Origin: an uncultured Rhodospirillaceae bacterium
GTDB lineage: Bacteria; Pseudomonadota; Alphaproteobacteria; UBA9219
NCBI GenBank assembly: GCA_964390005.1
Contig: CAYMGM010000001.1
Coordinates: 129,839 to 193,838, forward strand
Length of the DNA: 64,000 nt
Direction: 5' to 3'
Shown piece by piece: positions 29,370 to 61,628 of this stretch. Position 1 is the stretch's first letter, and each line of letters starts with the position of its first letter. The translations under genes and the position numbers were made by a program. The notes beneath the pieces are model-generated. The model made no database searches. It was not told the DNA's origin and was given only the letters and a program-made list of their open reading frames with translations.

Positions 29370-29446
29370 CGGAGAGTAGCTCAGCCTGGTAGAGCACTGC
29401 TTTCGGGAGGCAGGGGCCGGAGGTTCGAATCCTCTCTCTCCGACCA
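29370..29446 (+). tRNA. tRNA-Pro (anticodon CGG)
   Basis: Cloverleaf folded by hand. Acceptor CGGAGAG/CTCTCCG, D-arm GCTC-AGCCTGGTA-GAGC, anticodon stem CTGCT/GGCAG with loop TTCGGGA (anticodon CGG), a T-arm with GGTTCGAATCC, discriminator A, and an encoded CCA. Confidence 0.85.
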
Positions 29447-29486
29447 GTCAAAGAAAAAGGCCCCTTTATGGGGCCTTTTTCTTTGA
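29447..29486 (+). terminator. rho-independent terminator immediately 3' of tRNA-Pro
   Basis: AAAGAAAAAGGCCCC-TTTA-TGGGGCCTTTTTCTTT hairpin with a U-tail. Confidence 0.7.
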
Positions 29487-29615
29487 CTAATTTGGTAGAG
29501 GATACGAACCGGAGAAGGAGGTTTGACCAAACAGTCTGGGAGACTGTTTGGCGCGAGGCGAAGCCGAGATCTGAGCAGCGCGAAGATCAAAAACAGACTT
29601 TAAGTTTGTTTTTGC

Positions 29616-29674
29616 AATCCTCTCTCTCCGACCAGTCAAAGAAAAAGGCCCCTTTATGGGGCCTTTTTCTTTGA
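29616..29674 (+). repeat. 59-bp perfect direct repeat of the tRNA-Pro 3' end plus terminator (a second copy of 29428-29486)
   Basis: AATCCTCTCTCTCCGACCAGTCAAAGAAAAAGGCCCCTTTATGGGGCCTTTTTCTTTGA occurs twice, 129 bp apart. This is an att-site-like scar. Confidence 0.85.
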
Positions 29675-29914
29675 AGGATCGGATGGAGGCGGTAAACCGC
29701 TATATTTGATCGCTGGGAAGGTCAAAGCCACCTTTGGGTAAGGCAGTCGTCGCATATAAAAGAACGATTGTTGGCCCCATCCTGTGCAAGCTTGTTAATA
29801 ATGTATCTTTTTGCGCCTTGTCGATAATTTTATTGTTGTGTGGGAGCCGAAATGAAGTTAGTCTTCGAATCGAATAGACCTTATTCCGAATCTTCTCAAG
29901 AAGGATGTCTTGTA

Positions 29915-35425: not shown

Positions 35426-36835
35426 ATGATCGTTTTCACACTGCCTTTTCTGCCCAATACCGTGTTGCATCGCGCGCTTGTTCCCGACGATACACCTGCC
35501 TTGTTCGATGACAAATCGGTCGCGTGGACGACCTATGGCGAGGTGCGTGAGAAAATCGACGCCATGCAGGTTTGTTTTGCCGCGCTTGAAAAAGATCTGA
35601 TCTTCTGCGTCGCGCCGCGAACGGTCGATGGCGCTGTGGCCTATATGGGGGCAACGGCTTCAGGCCATGCTGTCGCGCTGGTCGATCCTTCTATGACGCA
35701 TTTGCGCGGCGTTGTTGCCGCGTACCGTCCGCGCTGGATCATGGCACCGCTGGATCATGCGTATCAAGGCTATGGCAAGGTCGAAGATTTTCCTTTGACG
35801 GGGATGGCGCTTTGGAAACGCTTTGGCGAAGCGGGCGGCTTTATCCATCCGCGCCTTTATTTGATTTTGCTGACATCGGGATCGACCGGCAGCAGCAAAG
35901 GCGTGCGCCTTTCTTATGCAAATGTGGCCAGCAACACGTCGGCGGTGATCGAAAGCCTGTCGATGGAGGGCGGCGTTTGCGCGGTGGGGCATTTGCCTTT
36001 GTCTTATTCCTTTGGGCTCTCGGTTCTTAACACGGCGATGGCTGTGGGCGGGCGCGTTTTGCTGACAGAAGAGGGGATGATGAGCCCCGCTTTCTGGTCG
36101 CGTGCCCGCGCGCAAGAAGCCAATCTGTTCCCCGGCGTTCCGTATCATTTTGAGATGCTGCTGCGCCTGTCGCTGGAAGGGCTGAAGATTCCGTCGCTGA
36201 AAACCTTTTTGCAGGCTGGCGGTAAAATGCCGGTTCCCATGACGCAAAAAGTTCTTGAGGCGGTCATGGCGCGGCAAGGCGGGCTTTACATCATGTATGG
36301 CCAAACAGAAGCCAGCCCGCGCATTTCATCGTTTCCGCTTCACTTGCATCCAGAAAAAATCGGCTCATCAGGTATCCCCATGTCGGGCGGCCATGTCGAG
36401 ATCGTCGATAACGAGATTATCTATCACGGACCGAACGTGATGATGGGCTATGCGATCACGCGCGAAGATTTGTGCAAAGGCGACGGCATGCATGGGCGCT
36501 TGCCGACGGGCGATCACGGCTCTGTGGATGCTGACGGTTATTTGACCGTTTTGGGCCGCGAAAAACGCATTGCCAAGCTTTACGGTCAGCGCGTGGCGTT
36601 GGACGATCTGGAAAAGTTTGCGGCAGCATTGGCCCCCGTCGTTGCGATTGAGCGCGATCAGCAAATCTTGCTGATTACCACGGCGGCAGAAGAAAGCCTG
36701 CGCGACCGGATCAAAGCCTTGGTGATGAGCGAAACGGGCTTGCCGCCGACATGGCTTGAGGTGCGCTCGGTTGCCGATATTCCGCACCAGCCGAACGGCA
36801 AGGTCGATTACCAGCGCCTCCGAGCCGAAGCGTGA
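35426..36835 (+). CDS. AMP-dependent synthetase/ligase (acyl-CoA or acyl-ACP synthetase-like)
   Basis: AMP-binding motif LTSGSTGSSKGV and a YGQTEA motif. 469 aa. It starts 1 nt after the SDR stop. Confidence 0.8.
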   Translation: MIVFTLPFLPNTVLHRALVPDDTPALFDDKSVAWTTYGEVREKIDAMQVCFAALEKDLIFCVAPRTVDGAVAYMGATASGHAVALVDPSMTHLRGVVAAYRPRWIMAPLDHAYQGYGKVEDFPLTGMALWKRFGEAGGFIHPRLYLILLTSGSTGSSKGVRLSYANVASNTSAVIESLSMEGGVCAVGHLPLSYSFGLSVLNTAMAVGGRVLLTEEGMMSPAFWSRARAQEANLFPGVPYHFEMLLRLSLEGLKIPSLKTFLQAGGKMPVPMTQKVLEAVMARQGGLYIMYGQTEASPRISSFPLHLHPEKIGSSGIPMSGGHVEIVDNEIIYHGPNVMMGYAITREDLCKGDGMHGRLPTGDHGSVDADGYLTVLGREKRIAKLYGQRVALDDLEKFAAALAPVVAIERDQQILLITTAAEESLRDRIKALVMSETGLPPTWLEVRSVADIPHQPNGKVDYQRLRAEA

Positions 36836-37929
36836 GCCAGCAAGAGGGAACAGCGCTCGACGCTTTGTTCGCGCTTCCCTATGCCAGCCTTGCCCAAGCG
36901 GAAAAAGAGCGGCAACTGTTTCCGCTGCTGCGCGATGGGCTTGCCTATCACCGCGCGGCTTGCCCTGCTTTTGATCGGATTGTCGCGCGCGCTTTTCCGG
37001 ACGAGCCTGTGGGGCTCGATACCTTGCCCTATCTTCCGATCTCGCTGTTCAAGGACCGGCGTTTGCTTAGCGTGCCCGCGACGGAGGTGCGCGTGGCGGT
37101 TCAGTCCAGCGGCACCAGCGCCAGCGGGCTTAGTCAGGTTGCTTTAACGGCGGATGATGCGCGGCGTACCGCGCGGTCGCTCGCCTCGATCTTAAAGACG
37201 GTTTTAGGGCCTGTGCGCTTGCCCATGCTGTTCATCGACACGCCAGATGTTCTGAAAGGTGGGGGCGCTGTCGGGGCGCGTGCGGCGGCGATTTTGGGTT
37301 TAATGCCTTATGGCCGCGATCACCGTTTTGTCCTGAACGAAGCTTGGGAATTGGATGAAAATGCGCTGCTTGATTTTCTTGCCAAGAACGGGAGTAAGCC
37401 TTTTGTGATTTATGGTTTTACTTTTCTTGTTTGGCAGGCGCTGGCGCCTTTTTGCGCATCGCACCGCGTGGATCTTTCGAACGCGCTTTTGCTGCATAGC
37501 GGCGGGTGGAAAAAACTGCAAAGCCTTGCCGTTGATAATGCCGCTTTTCGCCATGCTTTTGCCGCGCAGGCTGGGCTGACACACATTGTCAATTTTTACG
37601 GCATGGCTGAAATGCCGGGTGTTGTTTTTCTGGAAAACGCAGACGGTCTTTTTTATCCGCCAAGCTTTGCCGACGTTTTGATCCGCGATCCGGTGACGCT
37701 TGCGCCGCTGCCTGTGGGGCAAGCGGGGCTGGTGCAGTGGATCAATCCACTGCCGCGCAGCTATCCCGGCCTTTCCGTTTTGACCGAAGACCTTGGCATT
37801 GTTGAAACCATCGATAGCAATGTCAGTGGTTGGAAAGGCCAAGCGCTTCGTCTGATCGGGCGCGCCCCAAAGGCTGAAATGCGCGGCTGCAGCGATGTGT
37901 TGGCGCAAAAAATAAGCGGGGAGGTCTGA
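36832..37929 (+). CDS. LuxE-family acyl-protein synthetase
   Basis: VQSSGTSASG, LHSGGWKKL and VLTEDLG correspond to the FTSSGTNG, ITGGGWK and IVTDDVG motifs of Vibrio LuxE. 365 aa. 4-bp overlap with the upstream gene. Confidence 0.7.
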   Translation: MSQQEGTALDALFALPYASLAQAEKERQLFPLLRDGLAYHRAACPAFDRIVARAFPDEPVGLDTLPYLPISLFKDRRLLSVPATEVRVAVQSSGTSASGLSQVALTADDARRTARSLASILKTVLGPVRLPMLFIDTPDVLKGGGAVGARAAAILGLMPYGRDHRFVLNEAWELDENALLDFLAKNGSKPFVIYGFTFLVWQALAPFCASHRVDLSNALLLHSGGWKKLQSLAVDNAAFRHAFAAQAGLTHIVNFYGMAEMPGVVFLENADGLFYPPSFADVLIRDPVTLAPLPVGQAGLVQWINPLPRSYPGLSVLTEDLGIVETIDSNVSGWKGQALRLIGRAPKAEMRGCSDVLAQKISGEV

Positions 37930-39128
37930 TGATCCAGTTTCATTTTGCCGCCACGCCACTAAAGGATTTAGAAGATCTTCGTAACGCCTGCCTTGCCGCG
38001 AAAGCGCAGCCTTTGGCTTTTGCCGACCCTAGCGTGCAGGCCTTTGCCCGCGCTTTGTCGGCGGGGTTGCTACAGGATCCTTTGGCCAAAGCTTTTCCGG
38101 CTTGCACGGCCTTTGGGTTTTGGCTGCGGGCCGCTGCGCTGGATGATTTAACGGCGCGTGTGCAAGCGGGATCGGTTGGACGCGCGCCTGCCGGGGCTGT
38201 CTTTTTAATGCCCCCTTCCAACGTGACAACGCTTTTTGCTTACACGGCGCTTTTATCACTTTTATGCGGCAATGTGACGCTGGTTCGCCTGCCGCAGACG
38301 CCCAGCGCGGCGCAAGATTATCTGCTGAGCCATTTTCTACGGGCGCTGGACCAAGCCCCGGATGCATTACGGCAGAAGCTGTTTCTTTTAGGTTATGGTC
38401 ACGATGACGCGATCACCACGGCCTTATCGGCGCTTGCAGACAGGCGTTTTGTCTGGGGGGCTGATGAAACAATTGCGCATATCGGCTCGTTGCCTTTGCC
38501 AGCGGGGGCGCATCATATCGGTTTTGGCGATCGCTTTTCCGCTGCGACCATCGGCGCAGAGGGTTATTTGGCTTTAGACGATCAGGCCAAAGATCATCTG
38601 GCGCGTCTGATGGCCGCCGATATTTACAGCTTTGATCAATTGGCTTGTTCGTCGCCGCGTGCGCTGTTTTGGATTGGCAGCGCCGATACGGTGCAAAAAG
38701 CGCGCGCCGATTATTACCCGCGTCTGACCGCAGCGGCTGAAGCGCGCGGCTATGCGCTTGACGCGGCTCAAGCCATTGCGCGCCGCCGCGCGGCTTTTCT
38801 GGCGCTTCATGATCTTCAAACGCAGTTCTATTGGGGGGCGTCAAAGGCGTTGGCCGTGATCGGCTTGGCGACAGCTGAAGAATTAGAGCCTTTTAAAACA
38901 GTATCTTATGGTTTTGGCCTTTTGCTTGATGCCTGTTGCCCCTCGCTTGAGGCTGTTCTATCAATAGCCAGCGCGCGCGATCAAACGCTAAGCTATGCTT
39001 GCCTGCCTGCGGTGCCGACCGAGCAAACAGCGTATGATCGAATGGTCCCGGTTGGCCGCGCGCTAGATTTTGACGTGAGATGGGACCGCATAGATTTGAT
39101 CGAGGCGATGACACGCCAGCAAGGATGA
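37929..39128 (+). CDS. LuxC-family acyl-CoA reductase-like protein
   Basis: 399 aa. It is the immediate partner of the LuxE-like gene, with a Cys-containing DQLACSSP motif in the position expected for a LuxC catalytic Cys. The family call rests partly on context. Confidence 0.5.
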   Translation: MIQFHFAATPLKDLEDLRNACLAAKAQPLAFADPSVQAFARALSAGLLQDPLAKAFPACTAFGFWLRAAALDDLTARVQAGSVGRAPAGAVFLMPPSNVTTLFAYTALLSLLCGNVTLVRLPQTPSAAQDYLLSHFLRALDQAPDALRQKLFLLGYGHDDAITTALSALADRRFVWGADETIAHIGSLPLPAGAHHIGFGDRFSAATIGAEGYLALDDQAKDHLARLMAADIYSFDQLACSSPRALFWIGSADTVQKARADYYPRLTAAAEARGYALDAAQAIARRRAAFLALHDLQTQFYWGASKALAVIGLATAEELEPFKTVSYGFGLLLDACCPSLEAVLSIASARDQTLSYACLPAVPTEQTAYDRMVPVGRALDFDVRWDRIDLIEAMTRQQG

Positions 39129-39134
39129 AGCAAG

Positions 39135-39776
39135 ATGTCAAAACTAATCATTGTAGGCGCGGGGGGCTTTGGCCTTGAGGTCGCCGCCTATGCCGAGGAC
39201 GCGCGCGCGGCACAAGCCGCGCAGCCCGAAATCATCGGCTTCTGCGATGACACAAAACCCAAAGGTGCGCAGCATGCGGGCTATCCCGTCATCGCGAACA
39301 CGGATGATCCCATTGATCCCACCGCGCTTTATATCTTGGCGGTTGGCTTTCCGGCTGCGCGGCGCGCGTTGGCTGAAAAACTGGCGGCTAAAGGGGCCCA
39401 GTTTCATACGCTGATCCACCCGCAAAGCTATGTCGCGCGGACGGCACGCCTTGCGCCGGGATGTATAGTTGTTCCGTTCGCGACGGTGGGGCCGATGGCC
39501 GTTTTGGGTCCGCACACAATGCTGAATTACCATGCGGTCTTTGGCCACGAAGCGCAGGCTGGTGATTTTTGCGTTTTATGCCCGTATGCCTGCGTCCACG
39601 GCACGGCTGTTTTAGAAGACGATGTCTTTATTGGCAGCGGCGGTTATGTCACGCGCGGCTTGCGTATTGGGCAAGGCTCGAAAATTGCCGCAAACGCTGT
39701 CGTTTATAATGATATCCCGCCGGGCGCGTTGGCGCTTGGCAATCCCGCCGTTTGCAGGAAGGAGCCGAACGCATGA
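39135..39776 (+). CDS. NeuD/PglD-family hexapeptide-repeat N-acyltransferase
   Basis: An N-terminal Rossmann-like IIVGAGGFGLEV is followed by left-handed beta-helix hexapeptide repeats (VFIGSGGYV, IGQGSKIAANAVV). 213 aa. Confidence 0.75.
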   Translation: MSKLIIVGAGGFGLEVAAYAEDARAAQAAQPEIIGFCDDTKPKGAQHAGYPVIANTDDPIDPTALYILAVGFPAARRALAEKLAAKGAQFHTLIHPQSYVARTARLAPGCIVVPFATVGPMAVLGPHTMLNYHAVFGHEAQAGDFCVLCPYACVHGTAVLEDDVFIGSGGYVTRGLRIGQGSKIAANAVVYNDIPPGALALGNPAVCRKEPNA

Positions 39777-55927: not shown

Positions 55928-56911
55928 CTAAACGCTTTGGATTCTTTTAAGACAGAGTCTGTTTAAAACAGAAGGATCAACGGTATAGGATCCACTGCTG
56001 ACGCTTATGTCTTGGGTGCTGTCATCGTCAAACGTGCAGCGTATCGTTGAAATACCCGATGGGATTGTAAAGGAAAGCTGATCTGTGGCACGTGTGACGG
56101 CGCTTCCATTTGTGGGAATGTATGATGTGGCAACAGAGCCAACTTCATACTGCTCTCCCCATATATTTATGTTACCTGATGATCCTAGATATGACGGTAA
56201 AGAGCCGTTGGTATCTAAATTATTTGTCAGGGCGTTATAGAAAGTAGAATGGTTTCCTGAAGTGTTTTCTTTGGCCTTTACTGAAATTCTATAATTTGAA
56301 TTTCCTACCGCTTCAATGCTTGGTACAGCAACTGTAAAAGCGTTGTGGCCGACCACACCGGCACTAACATCAAAATTTGCATAATAAAGTTCAGTGTACG
56401 ACCCTGCATATGCTTTCATTTGCAGAATATACTCAGAACCCGCTCTTGCAAACACGCTCATGATTATATCATTGTAGTTCATAGCTATAAGCGGCGGTTT
56501 TGCATAGTGAACTGAAGACCCTGTTCCTTCATTAAGATTTTTGAAATAGGTCATCCCGTCTGGAGAAAGCAGAGACGAATCTGACGCGGTAACGCCAGAA
56601 AGGGCCCAATTCGTAGGAGGATTTGAGTTTGTAAATAAGTTTGTTCTTTGAGGCTCAATCAGTAACCCGCTAGCTTCCCACAATCCCGTCGAGGTATTGT
56701 AGTCATAATTAAATCTAGGCGTATCTACCGAAGCGGTCCGCATGACGCCGCTACTGTCGAAATAGGTTCCCGTGCTGGCGCGAGAGAAGCGACAATCGGT
56801 CGGCAGGATTCCGCTTGTAAAGGACAGATCCAACGCAGGCGGTTGGGGCGCGGCGCTCTTATGCGTCTTGTCAAGTAAAAGAAGCATCGCCATATTAAAC
56901 CGCGCGGACAA
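55928..56911 (-). CDS. phage tail-fibre-like protein
   Basis: 327 aa, Ser/Thr/Asn/Gly-rich. The LIEPQRTNLFTNSN and YIPTNGSAVTRATDQLSF motifs resemble conserved segments of phage tail-fibre / host-specificity proteins. No signal peptide. Confidence 0.4.
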   Translation of the reverse strand: MSARFNMAMLLLLDKTHKSAAPQPPALDLSFTSGILPTDCRFSRASTGTYFDSSGVMRTASVDTPRFNYDYNTSTGLWEASGLLIEPQRTNLFTNSNPPTNWALSGVTASDSSLLSPDGMTYFKNLNEGTGSSVHYAKPPLIAMNYNDIIMSVFARAGSEYILQMKAYAGSYTELYYANFDVSAGVVGHNAFTVAVPSIEAVGNSNYRISVKAKENTSGNHSTFYNALTNNLDTNGSLPSYLGSSGNINIWGEQYEVGSVATSYIPTNGSAVTRATDQLSFTIPSGISTIRCTFDDDSTQDISVSSGSYTVDPSVLNRLCLKRIQSV

Positions 56912-57260
56912 TCAATTTCAGGGTCGAAGCTGTCGCCTGCAAGACGGGGCTTGCTGCCGTACCTGACCTGATTTTCAGGTACTGCAAGGACGCAAAGCCT
57001 TTAGGATCAAGCATGATGCAACTAGAGGCGGTGGGAACGGCTGTAATTTCGCTACCGTCCTGGTCAATAAGGCTGTACCAGTTGGTGCCATTATCAGGGG
57101 ACATTTGAAAAGTCAAAGAAGCGTTTGTCCAGTTGGCGGGAATGGCAACGCCAAACAAACGCAATCCGCCAAGATCGATCGTGTTTGTTATGGATGCGCT
57201 GGCGTTGATCGTAACGGGAAGCGCTTCCCAAGCGGAGACGCAGGTGTCTTTCAGTGACAT
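56895..57260 (-). CDS. hypothetical phage-structural-like protein
   Basis: About 121 aa from MSLKDTCVS. It overlaps the tail-fibre-like gene start by 17 bp. AT-rich. Confidence 0.3.
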   Translation of the reverse strand: MSLKDTCVSAWEALPVTINASASITNTIDLGGLRLFGVAIPANWTNASLTFQMSPDNGTNWYSLIDQDGSEITAVPTASSCIMLDPKGFASLQYLKIRSGTAASPVLQATASTLKLIVRAV

Positions 57261-57466
57261 TTGAAATCCTTTCCAAGCATAAAAAAAGCGGCCCCTGAAA
57301 AGGGCCGCGTGCCGCGAGATATTTTTGTTTTTGTTCCTGTAAGTGTTCCGAATGCGCGTCAAAGCAAAAAAGGCGCAAGGAACCTGTCTTTAGTCAATAC
57401 GCGAAAGCGCGGATCTCGTCAAGGGAAAAATCCTACATTTAGACGAATGTTCAGAAAAATTCTACT

Positions 57467-58712: not shown

Positions 58713-60041
58713 ATGAAAACGACAGTTCAACGTATTTCAATTTACGCTTTTTTTGTTTTTAGTCTTTTGAGCGCCAGTTCTGTTTGGGCAGCCGAGCCCG
58801 TGCGCGCTCTTAGCGCCGATGCTTTTTTGAATTCTCTCGGGGTCATTACGCATGTGGCGCAAGGGTATAATCCCCGCCTTTATATTGACCCCCTGCGTTT
58901 TCTTGGTGTCCGACAAATTCGCGATGGTTCCAAAAATCTTTCAGGCATCGTCACGTTGCATGAGAAAACGGGGGTGCGCGTTGCCCTTATCGGGGCAAAG
59001 ATTCCAGAAGTGATTAGTTCAGCCCGTACGTTGGCGGCGCGGGATATGTTGCTTGCGATTGAAGGCCCGAACGAACCGAACAATTTTCCTATCACTTATC
59101 AGAATAGCGTTGGTGGAGGAAAGACGGGCTCATGGGCACCGGTCGCTTTTTATCAGCGCGACCTGTATGCAGCCGTCAAAGCGGATCCTGTTTTAAAGGA
59201 TTATCCCGTTTTTCATGTATCGGAAGGCGGCGCGGAAATAGACAATGTTGGCTTGCAGTTTTTGACGATACCTGAAAACGCGGGCACTTTATTGCCAGCA
59301 GGAACTATTTTTGCCGATTATGCGAACGCGCATAACTATGTTTGTGGAAACGGCAATCGTTATGATGACAATCAAGCATGGAATGCGGCCGATCCTGTTT
59401 TAAACGCACGTTGGGATGGGCTGTATGGCTTGTATGGCCGGACGTGGCTTCGCCATTATACAGGTTATACAAATGAACAGTTGATGACGTTACCGCGCGT
59501 TACGACAGAGACGGGATGGGGAACGGGCCCTCGGGGGGCGAGCGAAGACGTGCAAGGCAAAGTTCTTGTGAATACCTATTTGGCTCAGTTCAAACGCGGC
59601 TGGACTTATACCTTTGTTTATGAACTTGGCGAAGGTGAAGGCGGCGGTGGCAATTATGGGCTGTTCCATAAAGATTGGACGCCAAAATTAGCTGCGACCT
59701 ATATTCACAACATGACGTCGATTTTAGCCGATACAAAACCGGTCTTGAAGCCAGGAAGTTTGGCTTACAGCTTATCCAATCAACCCGCGACGGTTCACGA
59801 TCTTCTTTTGCAAAAAAGCGATGGGGTCTTTTATTTGGTTGTTTGGGGCGAAAAAGTCTCAGGCAGCGACGAGGTACGCGTTACTTTGGATAAGCCCGCG
59901 GCTGTTATCGATGTTTTTGATGTTACGCTGAGCGACGGTCCGCAGCAGCGTCTTAAGAACCAGTCTGAGGTTCCCTTAACGCTATCGGATCACGCGCTGA
60001 TTTTAAAGATTTCGAACAGCAAGAGCACGCCGAGCAAATAA
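58713..60041 (+). CDS. secreted glycoside-hydrolase-like protein
   Basis: Signal peptide MKTTVQRISIYAFFVFSLLSASSVWA. TIM-barrel-like conserved acidic positions (LAIEGPNEPNN, TTETGWG) are reminiscent of GH clan A enzymes. Confidence 0.45.
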   Translation: MKTTVQRISIYAFFVFSLLSASSVWAAEPVRALSADAFLNSLGVITHVAQGYNPRLYIDPLRFLGVRQIRDGSKNLSGIVTLHEKTGVRVALIGAKIPEVISSARTLAARDMLLAIEGPNEPNNFPITYQNSVGGGKTGSWAPVAFYQRDLYAAVKADPVLKDYPVFHVSEGGAEIDNVGLQFLTIPENAGTLLPAGTIFADYANAHNYVCGNGNRYDDNQAWNAADPVLNARWDGLYGLYGRTWLRHYTGYTNEQLMTLPRVTTETGWGTGPRGASEDVQGKVLVNTYLAQFKRGWTYTFVYELGEGEGGGGNYGLFHKDWTPKLAATYIHNMTSILADTKPVLKPGSLAYSLSNQPATVHDLLLQKSDGVFYLVVWGEKVSGSDEVRVTLDKPAAVIDVFDVTLSDGPQQRLKNQSEVPLTLSDHALILKISNSKSTPSK

Positions 60042-60042
60042 A

Positions 60043-60306
60043 CAGGCGCATACAGCAAAGTTGCAGAGCTAAAAAGAATGACCGCGGTGCAAAACCGCAC
60101 TGAGCAAGCAAACAGGCGCATACAGTTAAGTTGCAGGGCTTAAAAGAATGGCTGCGGTGCCACGCCGCACTGAGCAAGCAAACAGGCGCATACAGTTAAG
60201 TTGCAGAGCTTAAAAGAATGGCTGCGGTGCCACCGCACTGAGCAAGCAAACAGGCGCATACAGTTAAGTTGCAGGGCTTGAAAGAATGGCCGCGGCGCCA
60301 CGCCGC
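60043..60306. repeat. about 3.8 tandem copies of a 68-70-bp repeat
   Basis: The units begin with CAGGCGCATACAG at 60043, 60113, 60183 and 60251. They are more than 90% identical, and the last unit is truncated by the tRNA-derived repeat. Confidence 0.9.
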
Positions 60307-60334
60307 TGGTTGGGGCGGGAGGGATCGAACCTCC
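60307..60334 (-). repeat. 28-bp direct repeat of the tRNA-Gln 3' end (partial tRNA copy, att-like)
   Basis: TGGTTGGGGCGGGAGGGATCGAACCTCC is identical to 60391-60418. It is followed by the hairpin TGTCGGCC-TTT-GGCCGACA. No 5' half of a tRNA is present. Confidence 0.85.
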
Positions 60335-60390
60335 TGTCGGCCTTTGGCCGACAACTAAATTTAGCGGAGGTTCTACGGATGGTTGGGCTT

Positions 60391-60465
60391 TGGTTGGGGC
60401 GGGAGGGATCGAACCTCCGCATGGCGGAATCAAAATCCGCTGCCTTACCGCTTGGCTACGCCCCA
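60391..60465 (-). tRNA. tRNA-Gln (anticodon UUG)
   Basis: The reverse complement reads UGGGGCGUAGCCAAGCGGUAAGGCAGCGGAUUUUGAUUCCGCCAUGCGGAGGUUCGAUCCCUCCCGCCCCAACCA. This is the characteristic tRNA-Gln sequence with a U1-A72 pair and anticodon loop UUUUGAU. Confidence 0.85.
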
Positions 60466-60742
60466 ATATCACATCGGCCGATTCATAAATGACAACGACG
60501 GTTGCGAGGGTCGGGACAATAACTTGCCTTATCCCAAAGAGCAATCCCTCTTTTCAGGCTATTTGAAAAAAATTATCCAGCGTAATCAATAAGGCAGCCC
60601 CTTATGCATGTTGACGCTGTTTTTAGGGGCTTGGGCTGTTCCAAACGGTAAAGCTTTGTTTGATCGCGATAAACTTGTTTTTAACACTCTAGGGCGTAAG
60701 TCATGGGGGAGACCATCATTTTTGACGAAAAAGGATTGCCCC

Positions 60743-61228
60743 ATGAGCAAAAGCGCAACGCTCTTAGACCGCACGTTCGATGAAGGCGTTGCCTTGACGA
60801 TCGAGGCACGAAACTACATTTCCTATCACGAACAAGCCGACCGCCGGACCTTTGACCTGCCGCAGTGCTTGAATGTCGGGTACCACCATACGCGGGTCTC
60901 GGCGCGGCTGATCCAGATTATGACGTGGCTGCTGGCGATGAAAGCGCTGCTGGCTGGCGAGATCTCACCCGAGCAGTTTAACTCTCCCGAATACGCCTTG
61001 GCTGGCGGTGAGGAATGCGAAAGCGACATGGGGCCCGAGCTTGGCGATCTGCCGCAAGGCCTGCAAAGCTTGCTTGAGCGTTCGCATGCGCTTTATGCGC
61101 GTATTCTGCGCCTTGATGCGATGGTCCGCAGCAAATTGGATGCGGGCGAGGTCCCTAATTTCGGGATGATCCAAGGGATCAAGATCATCGATGAAGAACC
61201 GGCGCAAGATTATAACGGGCGCTATTAA
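60743..61228 (+). CDS. hypothetical protein (possibly DUF1465-like)
   Basis: About 161 aa from MSKSATLLDR, with a GATT-like RBS region. The ORF track begins at 60608. Acidic C-terminus. Weak family assignment. Confidence 0.35.
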   Translation: MSKSATLLDRTFDEGVALTIEARNYISYHEQADRRTFDLPQCLNVGYHHTRVSARLIQIMTWLLAMKALLAGEISPEQFNSPEYALAGGEECESDMGPELGDLPQGLQSLLERSHALYARILRLDAMVRSKLDAGEVPNFGMIQGIKIIDEEPAQDYNGRY

Positions 61229-61250
61229 GACCGTATTTTTGAACCCAACA

Positions 61251-61292
61251 AAAAACCCTTCTTTCATTTGAAAGAAGGGTTTTTTGTAAGGG
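61251..61292. terminator. bidirectional rho-independent terminator
   Basis: AAAAACCCTTCTTTC-ATTT-GAAAGAAGGGTTTTTTG between convergent genes. Confidence 0.75.
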
Positions 61293-61319
61293 CAACAGAG
61301 ACCCAAAGAAAAGGAGGCG

Positions 61320-61628
61320 TTAGGCCTTCTTCTTTTCTTTCTTGGCGCCAGTTGTCACTTTGATCTTTTCTTCGGCAGCTTCGGGCTTGGCTTCGGCAGC
61401 CTTGTCCTTCGAGCCCGTCAAGCCAGCAAAACGCTTGTTGAACTTGGCCAACTGACCGCCGCGATCGACCATACGATGTTGACCCGTCCAAGCCGGATGC
61501 GTCTTGGGGTCGATATCAAGCTGCAAACGATCACCTTCTTTGCCGTAGGTGCTGCGGGTCTTGATTTCGGTCCCGTCTGTCATGATGACGGTGATTTCGT
61601 GATAATCGGGATGAATGTCCTGCTTCAT
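61320..61628 (-). CDS. rpmE: 50S ribosomal protein L31
   Basis: [49 protein letters not shown] is canonical L31. The ORF track starts further upstream at 61724, which is unlikely. Confidence 0.9.

Follow-up and report, generated by a model that had tools for sequence, protein, structure and literature searches.

A duplicated tRNA-Gln 3′ end and an adjoining 70-bp tandem array in an uncultured Rhodospirillaceae bacterium

Distal to the tyrT gene of Escherichia coli, a 178-bp sequence that takes in the end of the tRNA is repeated 3.14 times. In E. coli MG1655, Tandem Repeats Finder (TRF) placed a repeat with a period of 178 and 3.1 copies directly after tyrV, and the unit ends in AATCCTTCCCCCACCACCA, which is identical to the final 19 nt (T-loop to CCA) of tRNA-Tyr. 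The unit further holds GGGGAAGGAT, an inverted 10-nt complement of part of the tRNA-Tyr end, together with internal hairpins. The MG1655 record annotates a small RNA (sRNA), rttR, and a small protein, tpr, at the tyrV-distal repeat, and the rtT RNA has been summarised as being involved in processing of the tyrT transcript and possibly in the stringent response (bioRxiv 10.1101/2024.07.17.603846). Here, a comparable arrangement is described in an uncultured Rhodospirillaceae bacterium, in a stretch of 64,000 nucleotides of contig CAYMGM010000001.1 (hereafter the window), where a tRNA-Gln gene is followed by a spacer, a second copy of its own 3′ end and an array of four 70-bp repeats.

Two further classes of described systems are relevant. 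The first comprises elements integrated into tRNA genes. The identity blocks of those tyrosine integrases that cross the T-loop at tRNA sites begin at the T-stem. Cis-mobilizable elements (CIMEs) are att-flanked elements that have lost the genes for integration and transfer (PMC6323972). The tRNA-Gln locus and its counterparts in related species share with tRNA-integrated islands and CIMEs a direct repeat starting at the T-arm, precise occupied and empty sites, tandem accretion, and integrases on the same tRNA in relatives. They differ from them in that the repeats are only 47–56 bp apart and enclose no gene, an inverted copy of the host tRNA is present and no parent element was found. The second class includes minisatellites or variable number tandem repeats, REP/BIME and ERIC, with which the 70-bp array shares a non-coding character, hairpins, a position between convergent genes and a head-to-tail order. 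REP, BIME and ERIC sequences are dispersed, whereas the 70-bp array is not.

No integrated element is in place at the tRNA-Gln locus. The preferred reading, to which a probability of about 0.5 is given, is that the 3′ flank of tRNA-Gln was reshaped twice by local, tRNA-templated repeat formation and recombination of the tyrT type, and that the array represents neutral or weakly useful terminators.

The tRNA-Gln trailer module

The tRNA-Gln(UUG) gene is located at 60391–60465 on the minus strand and has 75 nt including an encoded CCA. It was identified by ARAGORN (anticodon ttg) and matched the Rfam tRNA model RF00005 with 64.9 bits (E 3e-13). The last 28 nt of the gene (60391–60418, TGGTTGGGGCGGGAGGGATCGAACCTCC on the plus strand), which comprise the T-arm, the acceptor 3′ strand and ACCA, recur exactly at 60307–60334 on the same strand, downstream in the tRNA sense, and the two copies are parted by a 56-nt spacer at 60335–60390. 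When up to three mismatches were allowed, the 28-nt sequence gave two matches in the whole window and none in 100 shuffles. A tRNA-Gln gene with a 28-bp direct repeat 56 bp downstream, reported in an earlier note on this DNA from the letters alone, was therefore borne out by ARAGORN, Rfam and the repeat search. The duplication unit is 84 bp (56 + 28), and tRNA end, spacer and second tRNA end in the window together correspond to 1.33 units of the module.

In the tRNA sense, the spacer begins with 17 nt, AAGCCCAACCATCCGTA (60374–60390, minus strand), the sequence and length of which (11–17 nt) differ among species. The following segment, GAACCTCCGC (60364–60373, minus strand), is an exact inverted match to part of the tRNA, being the antisense of GCGGAGGTTC in the variable loop and T-stem. 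A U-rich tract (60353–60363, minus strand) separates it from a GC hairpin, GUCGGCC AAA GGCCGAC (60336–60352, minus strand), which ends 1 nt ahead of the partial tRNA copy. The minimum free energy (MFE) of this hairpin is −13.4 kcal/mol, and values of −13 or below are reached by just 0.2% of background 22-mers.

Like the E. coli tyrTV-distal repeat, the tRNA-Gln module is a tandem trailer unit after a tRNA that ends with the tRNA 3′ end and includes an inverted piece and hairpins; its copy number is 1.33 in the window and at least two in the related locus L071. The two differ in the tRNA involved and in unit length (178 bp, as compared with 75–84 bp for the Gln module), and no small open reading frame (ORF) resembling tpr is evident in the Gln module. 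A search of Rfam 15 at E ≤ 1 over positions 59000–61500 matched only the tRNA and did not return RtT; hence, the Gln module resembles E. coli rtT neither in sequence nor by covariance model and is not homologous to it, and other known RNA families were likewise rejected by this search. Judged by architecture, the module is of the same kind as the tyrV-distal repeats, which are the closest analogue verified.

A structure of the same design on a larger scale is associated with tRNA-Pro(CGG), located by ARAGORN at 29370–29446 on the plus strand (whole structure 29370–29689). The last 19 nt of tRNA-Pro and the terminator recur at 29616–29675 with a period of 188, the copy being part of a 74-nt repeat of 91% identity in which the first ~60 nt are exact. 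The tRNA-Pro scar mentioned in the earlier note is thus real, the 19-nt end and terminator being repeated 188 bp downstream, and its boundary is the same T-loop-to-CCA boundary as that of the 19-nt tRNA end in the E. coli unit. The 128-nt spacer of the tRNA-Pro structure contains two small hairpins with perfect stems and, at 29497–29510, an inverted T-arm-like piece (GGTTCGTATCCTCT, as compared with GGTTCGAATCCTCT), for which the chance expectation is 0.02 matches. A hairpin at 29588–29614 stands directly ahead of the distal tRNA-Pro copy.

For comparison with related species, the 200 nt downstream of tRNA-Gln were read in all related loci (about 45), and metagenomes were scanned for two tRNA ends 40–70 nt apart. 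The module is present in 0, 1 or 2 copies in at least six Micavibrio-like species. An intact second copy of the tRNA end was found in L011, L060/L061 and L071/L072; the module of L042 is cut off by the contig end, and the second copies in L012 and L022 have a decayed acceptor part. The locus L071/L072 from a JGI metagenome (L071, 2540–2704) includes two tandem modules, with the second tRNA end decayed, and therefore the unit itself expands. The layout of the module in the tRNA sense is constant and consists of CCA, 11–17 variable nt, GAACCUCC(G...), a U-rich tract of 8–12 nt, the GC hairpin, 1 nt, and the T-arm, acceptor 3′ strand and ACCA. The spacer, 47–56 nt long in this family, can be divided into a half on the tRNA side, N11–17 + GAACCTCCG..., and a far half composed of the U-rich tract and the GC hairpin, next to the tRNA end.

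In the module-less loci L035, L066–68 and L069–70, the native flank CATATTTTCGTTAGC... directly follows the tRNA CCA. In L060 and L011, this flank, a bidirectional-terminator-like hairpin, follows the second tRNA copy instead, and alignment revealed a clean indel of 75–79 nt between tRNA-Gln and the native flank. Hence, either the unit is an insertion between the tRNA and the native flank or its absence is a precise deletion. Both states of the site are therefore represented in the module family, empty in L035 and L066–70 and occupied in L060 and L011, all of them in species other than that of the window. Two module-less sisters of L060 and L022, namely L004 (9650–9746) and L016 (6660–6755), retain, as judged by eye, a T-arm-like remnant in addition to the first 7–17 spacer nt; these are tentatively regarded as decayed modules rather than cases of precise loss.

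Within each locus, the GAACCUCC motif is antisense to the variable-loop/T-stem segment of the tRNA it follows, and the two vary together. In the window and L060, a tRNA with ...CATGCGGAGGTTC (...CAUGCGGAGGUUC) is accompanied by a spacer with GAACCTCCGC (motif GAACCUCCGC), and in L011, L071 and L042 a tRNA with ...CATTCGGAGGTTC (...CAUUCGGAGGUUC) is accompanied by a spacer with GAACCTCCGAAT (motif GAACCUCCGAAU). The inverted piece thus follows the tRNA variant of its lineage in five species, over 10–12 exact nt and up to 15 nt in L011.

The hairpin by the second copy has a folding energy of −9.0 to −13.4 kcal/mol in six of the seven instances, as compared with 1.75% of background 22-mers at −9 or below. 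Its stems differ in sequence (GUCGGCC, GCCGCC, GUGCGC and GCGUGC), those in L011, L060, L012 and L071 being other than the stem in the window, and the hairpin of L022 includes G–U pairs that are specific to the tRNA sense. In four species, 25–28 nt of the second copy match the tRNA without a difference, and the spacers are otherwise barely alignable.

These features could be accounted for if the module were a structured RNA co-transcribed with tRNA-Gln, either an rtT-like trailer RNA or a spare 3′ half giving an extended cloverleaf. A hairpin kept in structure and not in sequence, with G–U pairs only in the tRNA sense, is consistent with such a role, as are a G–C to U–A double change in the helix formed by the tRNA variable-loop/T-stem segment with the spacer motif and the identity of the second copy to the tRNA in four species. 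The release of an RNA from a repeat distal to a tRNA has a precedent in rttR of E. coli (bioRxiv 10.1101/2024.07.17.603846). In the extended cloverleaf, the distal acceptor strand is the partner of the 5′ acceptor strand of the tRNA and the spacer motif that of the proximal T-stem strand; the GC hairpin takes a position like that of a class-II variable arm, with one nt between it and the distal T-arm. This fold is the MFE structure of tRNA plus module in all four intact species, where it beats the normal-tRNA fold by 4.3–10.1 kcal/mol, and it loses in the two decayed ones; the z value for the window precursor is −4.0. However, shuffled spacers still favoured the extended fold by 4–6 kcal/mol on average, 135 of the 150 shuffles matched or beat the window, and only L011 and L071 exceeded all spacer shuffles. 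The energy preference in the window is therefore not evidence of function, and the extended cloverleaf was rejected as a special property of the window. Furthermore, folding during transcription should favour the normal tRNA. The module is missing or decayed in most related species and hence dispensable, and no Rfam family, RtT included, was matched. Taken with these objections, a co-transcribed structured RNA is considered quite unlikely.

A wider proposal, for which the likelihood is also low, is that the ~80-nt unit might be an undescribed, selectively maintained element of Micavibrio-like bacteria, in the form of a processed trailer RNA, a bistable tRNA precursor or a miniature att-only mobile unit. 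Such an element would be made up of the inverted copy of the cognate T-arm, the U-tract, a covarying GC hairpin resembling a class-II variable arm and a spare T-arm/acceptor end. If so, a bistable precursor would have two alternative 3′ halves, and an att-only unit would insert, duplicate and excise at the T-arm.

The 70-bp array

The array at 60032–60306 on the minus strand was delimited by TRF, repeat search and inspection of the sequence. It consists of four head-to-tail units, U1 (60032–60101), U2 (60102–60171), U3 (60172–60239) and U4 (60240–60306), of 70, 70, 68 and 67 nt, respectively. TRF reported a period of 70, 3.9 copies, 90% matches and a score of 413 at 60032–60301. The repeat search gave in-register spacings of 70, 70 and 68 and identities to the reference unit of 80–96%; U1 is the most divergent unit (80% to the reference unit), and U2–U4 are 93–96% alike. 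At one end (60306) the array directly abuts the partial tRNA copy, and at the other the start of U1 (60032) lies seven bases ahead of the TAA stop codon (60039–60041) of the ORF ending at 60041. The tandem array of about 3.8 units that had been claimed to reach the stop codon of the last polysaccharide-locus gene is thus confirmed, with 3.9 copies and the stop codon overlapped.

Unlike the E. coli unit, the array is entirely free of tRNA sequence, and its 70-bp unit showed no significant similarity in either orientation with the tRNA or with the 84-nt duplication unit. Local alignment of the doubled unit with the module and the tRNA, on both strands, was no better than that of shuffles, and an origin of the array from decayed copies of the module was rejected. 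Given this lack of similarity, nothing marks the array as a decayed end of an element. The suggestion in the earlier note that it may be the decayed end of an integrative element is therefore not upheld, and the array and module are not such an end.

The core of the unit, ACAGGCGCATACAGNNAAGTTGCAG, which represents its 25 most conserved specified bases, was used in exact searches. All four matches in the window are inside the array, and no exact match was obtained in 185,579 GTDB species representatives, 241 million JGI metagenome records or IMG/VR. When the region was compared by blastn with collections of phages and plasmids, nothing of relevance was returned, and no array-like sequence was found downstream of tRNA-Gln in the related loci. 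A dispersed repeat family was rejected on the grounds of the searches with the core; the REP/ERIC-like family considered in the earlier note was thus not observed, there being no copies beyond the array in the window or in these collections. Elsewhere the array was seen only in short-read Logan contigs, three from the same organism (L001, L002 and L062) and one (L063) from a relative of 99% identity. Each of them stops inside the array or inside tRNA-Gln, and the locus is a systematic assembly breakpoint, at which short-read assemblies of the organism break because of these repeats.

In the tRNA sense, a small GC hairpin, GCGGYG...CRCCGC, stands at the head of each unit, and (G)CCAUUCUUU comes next. 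A consensus scan for terminators detected this element, on the minus strand, in three of the four units: in U1 as a hairpin with a T-tract (60083–60099), and in U2 (60153–60169) and U3 (60223–60237) as a hairpin with GCCATTCTTT. The hairpin of U4 at 60292–60306 on the same strand, GCGGCG UGG CGCCGC and then GGCCAUUCUUUC, stands directly after the partial tRNA copy; sequence and fold show it to be the same element, with one T under the T-count threshold of the scan. In the region as a whole, six sites were found as compared with 1.7 expected. U1–U3 thus combine a GC-rich hairpin with a T-tract on the transcribed strand, as is characteristic of intrinsic terminators, and the sequence predicts that the hairpins would act as such in the tRNA sense. 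The folding energy of the whole array is ordinary on either strand (z +0.83 and −0.38); folding of the repeat RNA, which had been proposed as a check, thus gave no signal beyond the small hairpin.

The left part of the array reaches into the convergent gene at 58713–60041 on the plus strand. This gene, the last of a low-GC polysaccharide locus, encodes a secreted glycosyl-hydrolase-like protein, which is 58–65% identical to homologues named 'glycosyl hydrolase'. Eight of nine homologues end with ...DHAxILEI[H/R/N], and the remaining one has a two-residue tail. The protein in the window has an extra eight-residue C-terminal tail, NSKSTPSK (60015–60038), and U1 takes in the final two tail codons together with the stop codon. 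The present end of the hydrolase ORF may have been supplied by the 70-bp repeat, and it is concluded that the left breakpoint of the array is arbitrary, inside the tail of the convergent gene.

Several other identities were tried. A coding repeat is excluded by the periods of 70, 70 and 68, which are not multiples of 3, and the ORFs that span the array region run through the tRNA and are spurious. A CRISPR array was rejected, the 70-bp units being contiguous and lacking unique spacers, and the R′/R″ consensus of integron attC sites was not matched on inspection.

The array might also be functional in its own right, offering a series of binding sites to a protein, encoding tandem sRNAs or serving the hydrolase gene as a regulatory 3′ untranslated region. 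The 93–96% identity of U2–U4 and the resemblance of the hairpin and U-tract of every unit to an sRNA 3′ end are in agreement with such a role, and regulatory extragenic repeats typically lie, as the array does, between convergent genes. Against this, the consensus scan found no promoter-like site, the array has no fold signal past the small hairpin, and the left boundary lies inside a coding tail, as would be the case for an arbitrary duplication breakpoint. As the 70-bp unit has no homologue in any species or collection searched, there is also no conservation to argue for function, and a functional array is regarded as highly improbable. The array is concluded to be a private minisatellite, which arose by tandem duplication of an intergenic segment bearing a hairpin and a T-tract after the tRNA.

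Integration or local repeat formation

According to the preferred reading, the module would have arisen from the tRNA gene itself, the palindromic T-arm being the place where template switching or a combined inverted and direct duplication occurred. The unit would then be kept, duplicated, deleted or left to decay through recombination or slippage that involves the copies of the tRNA end. A four-copy tandem duplication of a terminator segment would have produced the private minisatellite. The transcript of tRNA-Gln would run through the spacer and the pseudo-3′-end and encounter as many as four weak intrinsic terminators on its way to the hydrolase gene, which it would enter in antisense.

Several points weigh against this reading. 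A repeat that starts exactly at the T-stem and has precise insertion bounds is the product expected of att duplication by a tyrosine integrase, and integrases do occupy tRNA-Gln in two relatives (L036, 1809–2996, and L044, 682–1863). Neutral local duplication leaves unexplained the second copies that are identical to the tRNA in four species beside diverged spacers, and also the hairpin that persists through changed stems; the intact copy and the kept hairpin argue for selection, for gene conversion or for formation that is recent and recurrent. As to the array, no promoter-like site was found in the consensus scan of the region and the terminators are weak, and the search for further copies of the 70-bp unit in its own organism, which gave none, covered the 64-kb window and three short contigs.

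The setting of the tRNA gene is also of importance here. A DUF1465/RcdA-like gene, identified by Pfam at 60743–61228 on the plus strand, is the divergent neighbour of tRNA-Gln. Its closest relatives, which are 70–82% identical, come from metagenome-assembled genomes labelled Micavibrio, Rhodospirillaceae, 'Bdellovibrionales' or Alphaproteobacteria, and the source of the window is accordingly placed as an uncultivated, Micavibrio-like alphaproteobacterium. The order tRNA-Gln(−)/DUF1465(+) is kept in about 35 species-level related loci, and synteny to the right of tRNA-Gln is intact (DUF1465, L31, ABC transporter). To the left, none of the relatives has, downstream of its tRNA-Gln, a counterpart of any gene of the window. 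As synteny is limited to the right side, tRNA-Gln is a synteny breakpoint.

These data were considered with regard to an att scar or minimal CIME-like remnant, left by a tyrosine-integrase element that was once integrated in the T-arm/acceptor end of tRNA-Gln, or to an att-only unit of ~80 bp mobilised in trans. In an att scar, attL would be the regenerated tRNA, attR the displaced 28-nt fragment, and the 56 nt between them what is left of the element DNA. In form the locus agrees with this explanation. In the exact 28-nt pair, the 3′ portion of the target tRNA is repeated in direct orientation from the T-stem onward; the unit is precisely present or absent among relatives; the tandem copies in L071 are like those of tandem integration; and synteny breaks at tRNA-Gln. 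The definition of CIMEs allows for att-flanked elements after loss of the integration and transfer genes (PMC6323972). The integrases of L036 and L044 lie directly downstream of tRNA-Gln. They have 394–396 aa and the domains Arm-DNA-bind_3, Phage_int_M and Phage_integrase and are 86% identical to each other; both contigs end before the far ends of the islands.

However, neither an integrase nor cargo is present in the seven module-bearing loci or the window. No relative of the L036 integrase was found in the window by tblastn, and no Phage_integrase domain was found among the long ORFs scanned with Pfam at 28.5–62.6 kb (the genes at 49.5–54.2 kb were covered through the Pfam annotation of contig L062). 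The integrases targeting tRNA-Gln that the earlier note had proposed to look for are thus present in relatives and lacking in the window. Between attL and attR there would be no foreign cargo, only 56 nt that include the inverted copy of the cognate tRNA. No full element flanked by both spacer halves was found among the about 45 tRNA-Gln loci, and uniform spacers of 47–56 nt are unlike the outcome of independent deletions. The inverted motif of the spacer comes from the host's own tRNA and tracks the host variant, which is not expected of a foreign attP arm, and at 32–37 nt from its partner it is too far for a core-type site. The islands of L036 and L044 have unrelated sequence beside the tRNA. 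No phage, plasmid or viral contig with this tRNA end was found by blastn or in IMG/VR, and a phage or plasmid attP with the tRNA-Gln end was rejected, there being no IMG/VR matches with or without the spacer motif. Finally, a CIME-like remnant would need a parent element that has not been seen and the same ~50-nt remnant in every lineage. Of the att-like duplication claimed in the earlier note, the form thus stands, namely the T-stem direct repeat, the clean indel, the breakpoint and the integrases of relatives, but no integrase or cargo accompanies it and the 56 nt contain a cognate inverted copy. On balance, an origin by integration is possible, if somewhat unlikely.

An ectopic CRISPR-like spacer and a casposon-type target duplication were also considered and rejected, as the spacers of different species have motifs in common and terminal inverted repeats are lacking.

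Neighbouring genes and implications

The polysaccharide locus extends over about 46.1–60.0 kb, with a GC content of 44–49%, as compared with 52–58% elsewhere, and ends at the tRNA-Gln breakpoint. On its far side, no repeat of the tRNA-Gln end was found. Inside the locus, two adjacent ORFs of 327 and 155 aa at 55928–57362 on the minus strand have no Pfam match and are conserved in the same-organism Logan contig L062.

Among the ORFs that separate the tRNA-Pro scar from the polysaccharide locus are ddl-like, Mur-ligase, LuxE/LuxC-like, gluQ-like and NUDIX genes and sdhCDAB. Given that core genes, sdhCDAB among them, lie between the scars, there is no single island bounded by tRNA-Pro and tRNA-Gln. 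The view of the earlier note that the two scars flank the accessory regions therefore does not hold in the sense of their bracketing one, as the ddl-like, Mur-ligase and gluQ-like genes and sdhCDAB stand between them. At 35426–39776, between the cell-wall ligase genes and the gluQ-like and sdh genes, there is a cluster of genes for an AMP-binding protein, a LuxE-like acyl-protein synthetase, a LuxC-like acyl-CoA reductase and a PglD-like acetyltransferase, which looks like an acyl-modification module.

Partial copies of tRNA genes are routinely read as island boundaries, and the tRNA-Gln case is a caution in this regard. Here, the tRNA copy marks a module of ~80 bp, probably derived from the tRNA, with no element attached, and the adjoining array is a private minisatellite. 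The tyrT/rtT curiosity of E. coli would thereby gain a second, independent lineage, that of related uncultivated predators, in which the module provides a concrete, testable case of tRNA 3′ flanks that may generate repeats, or small RNAs.

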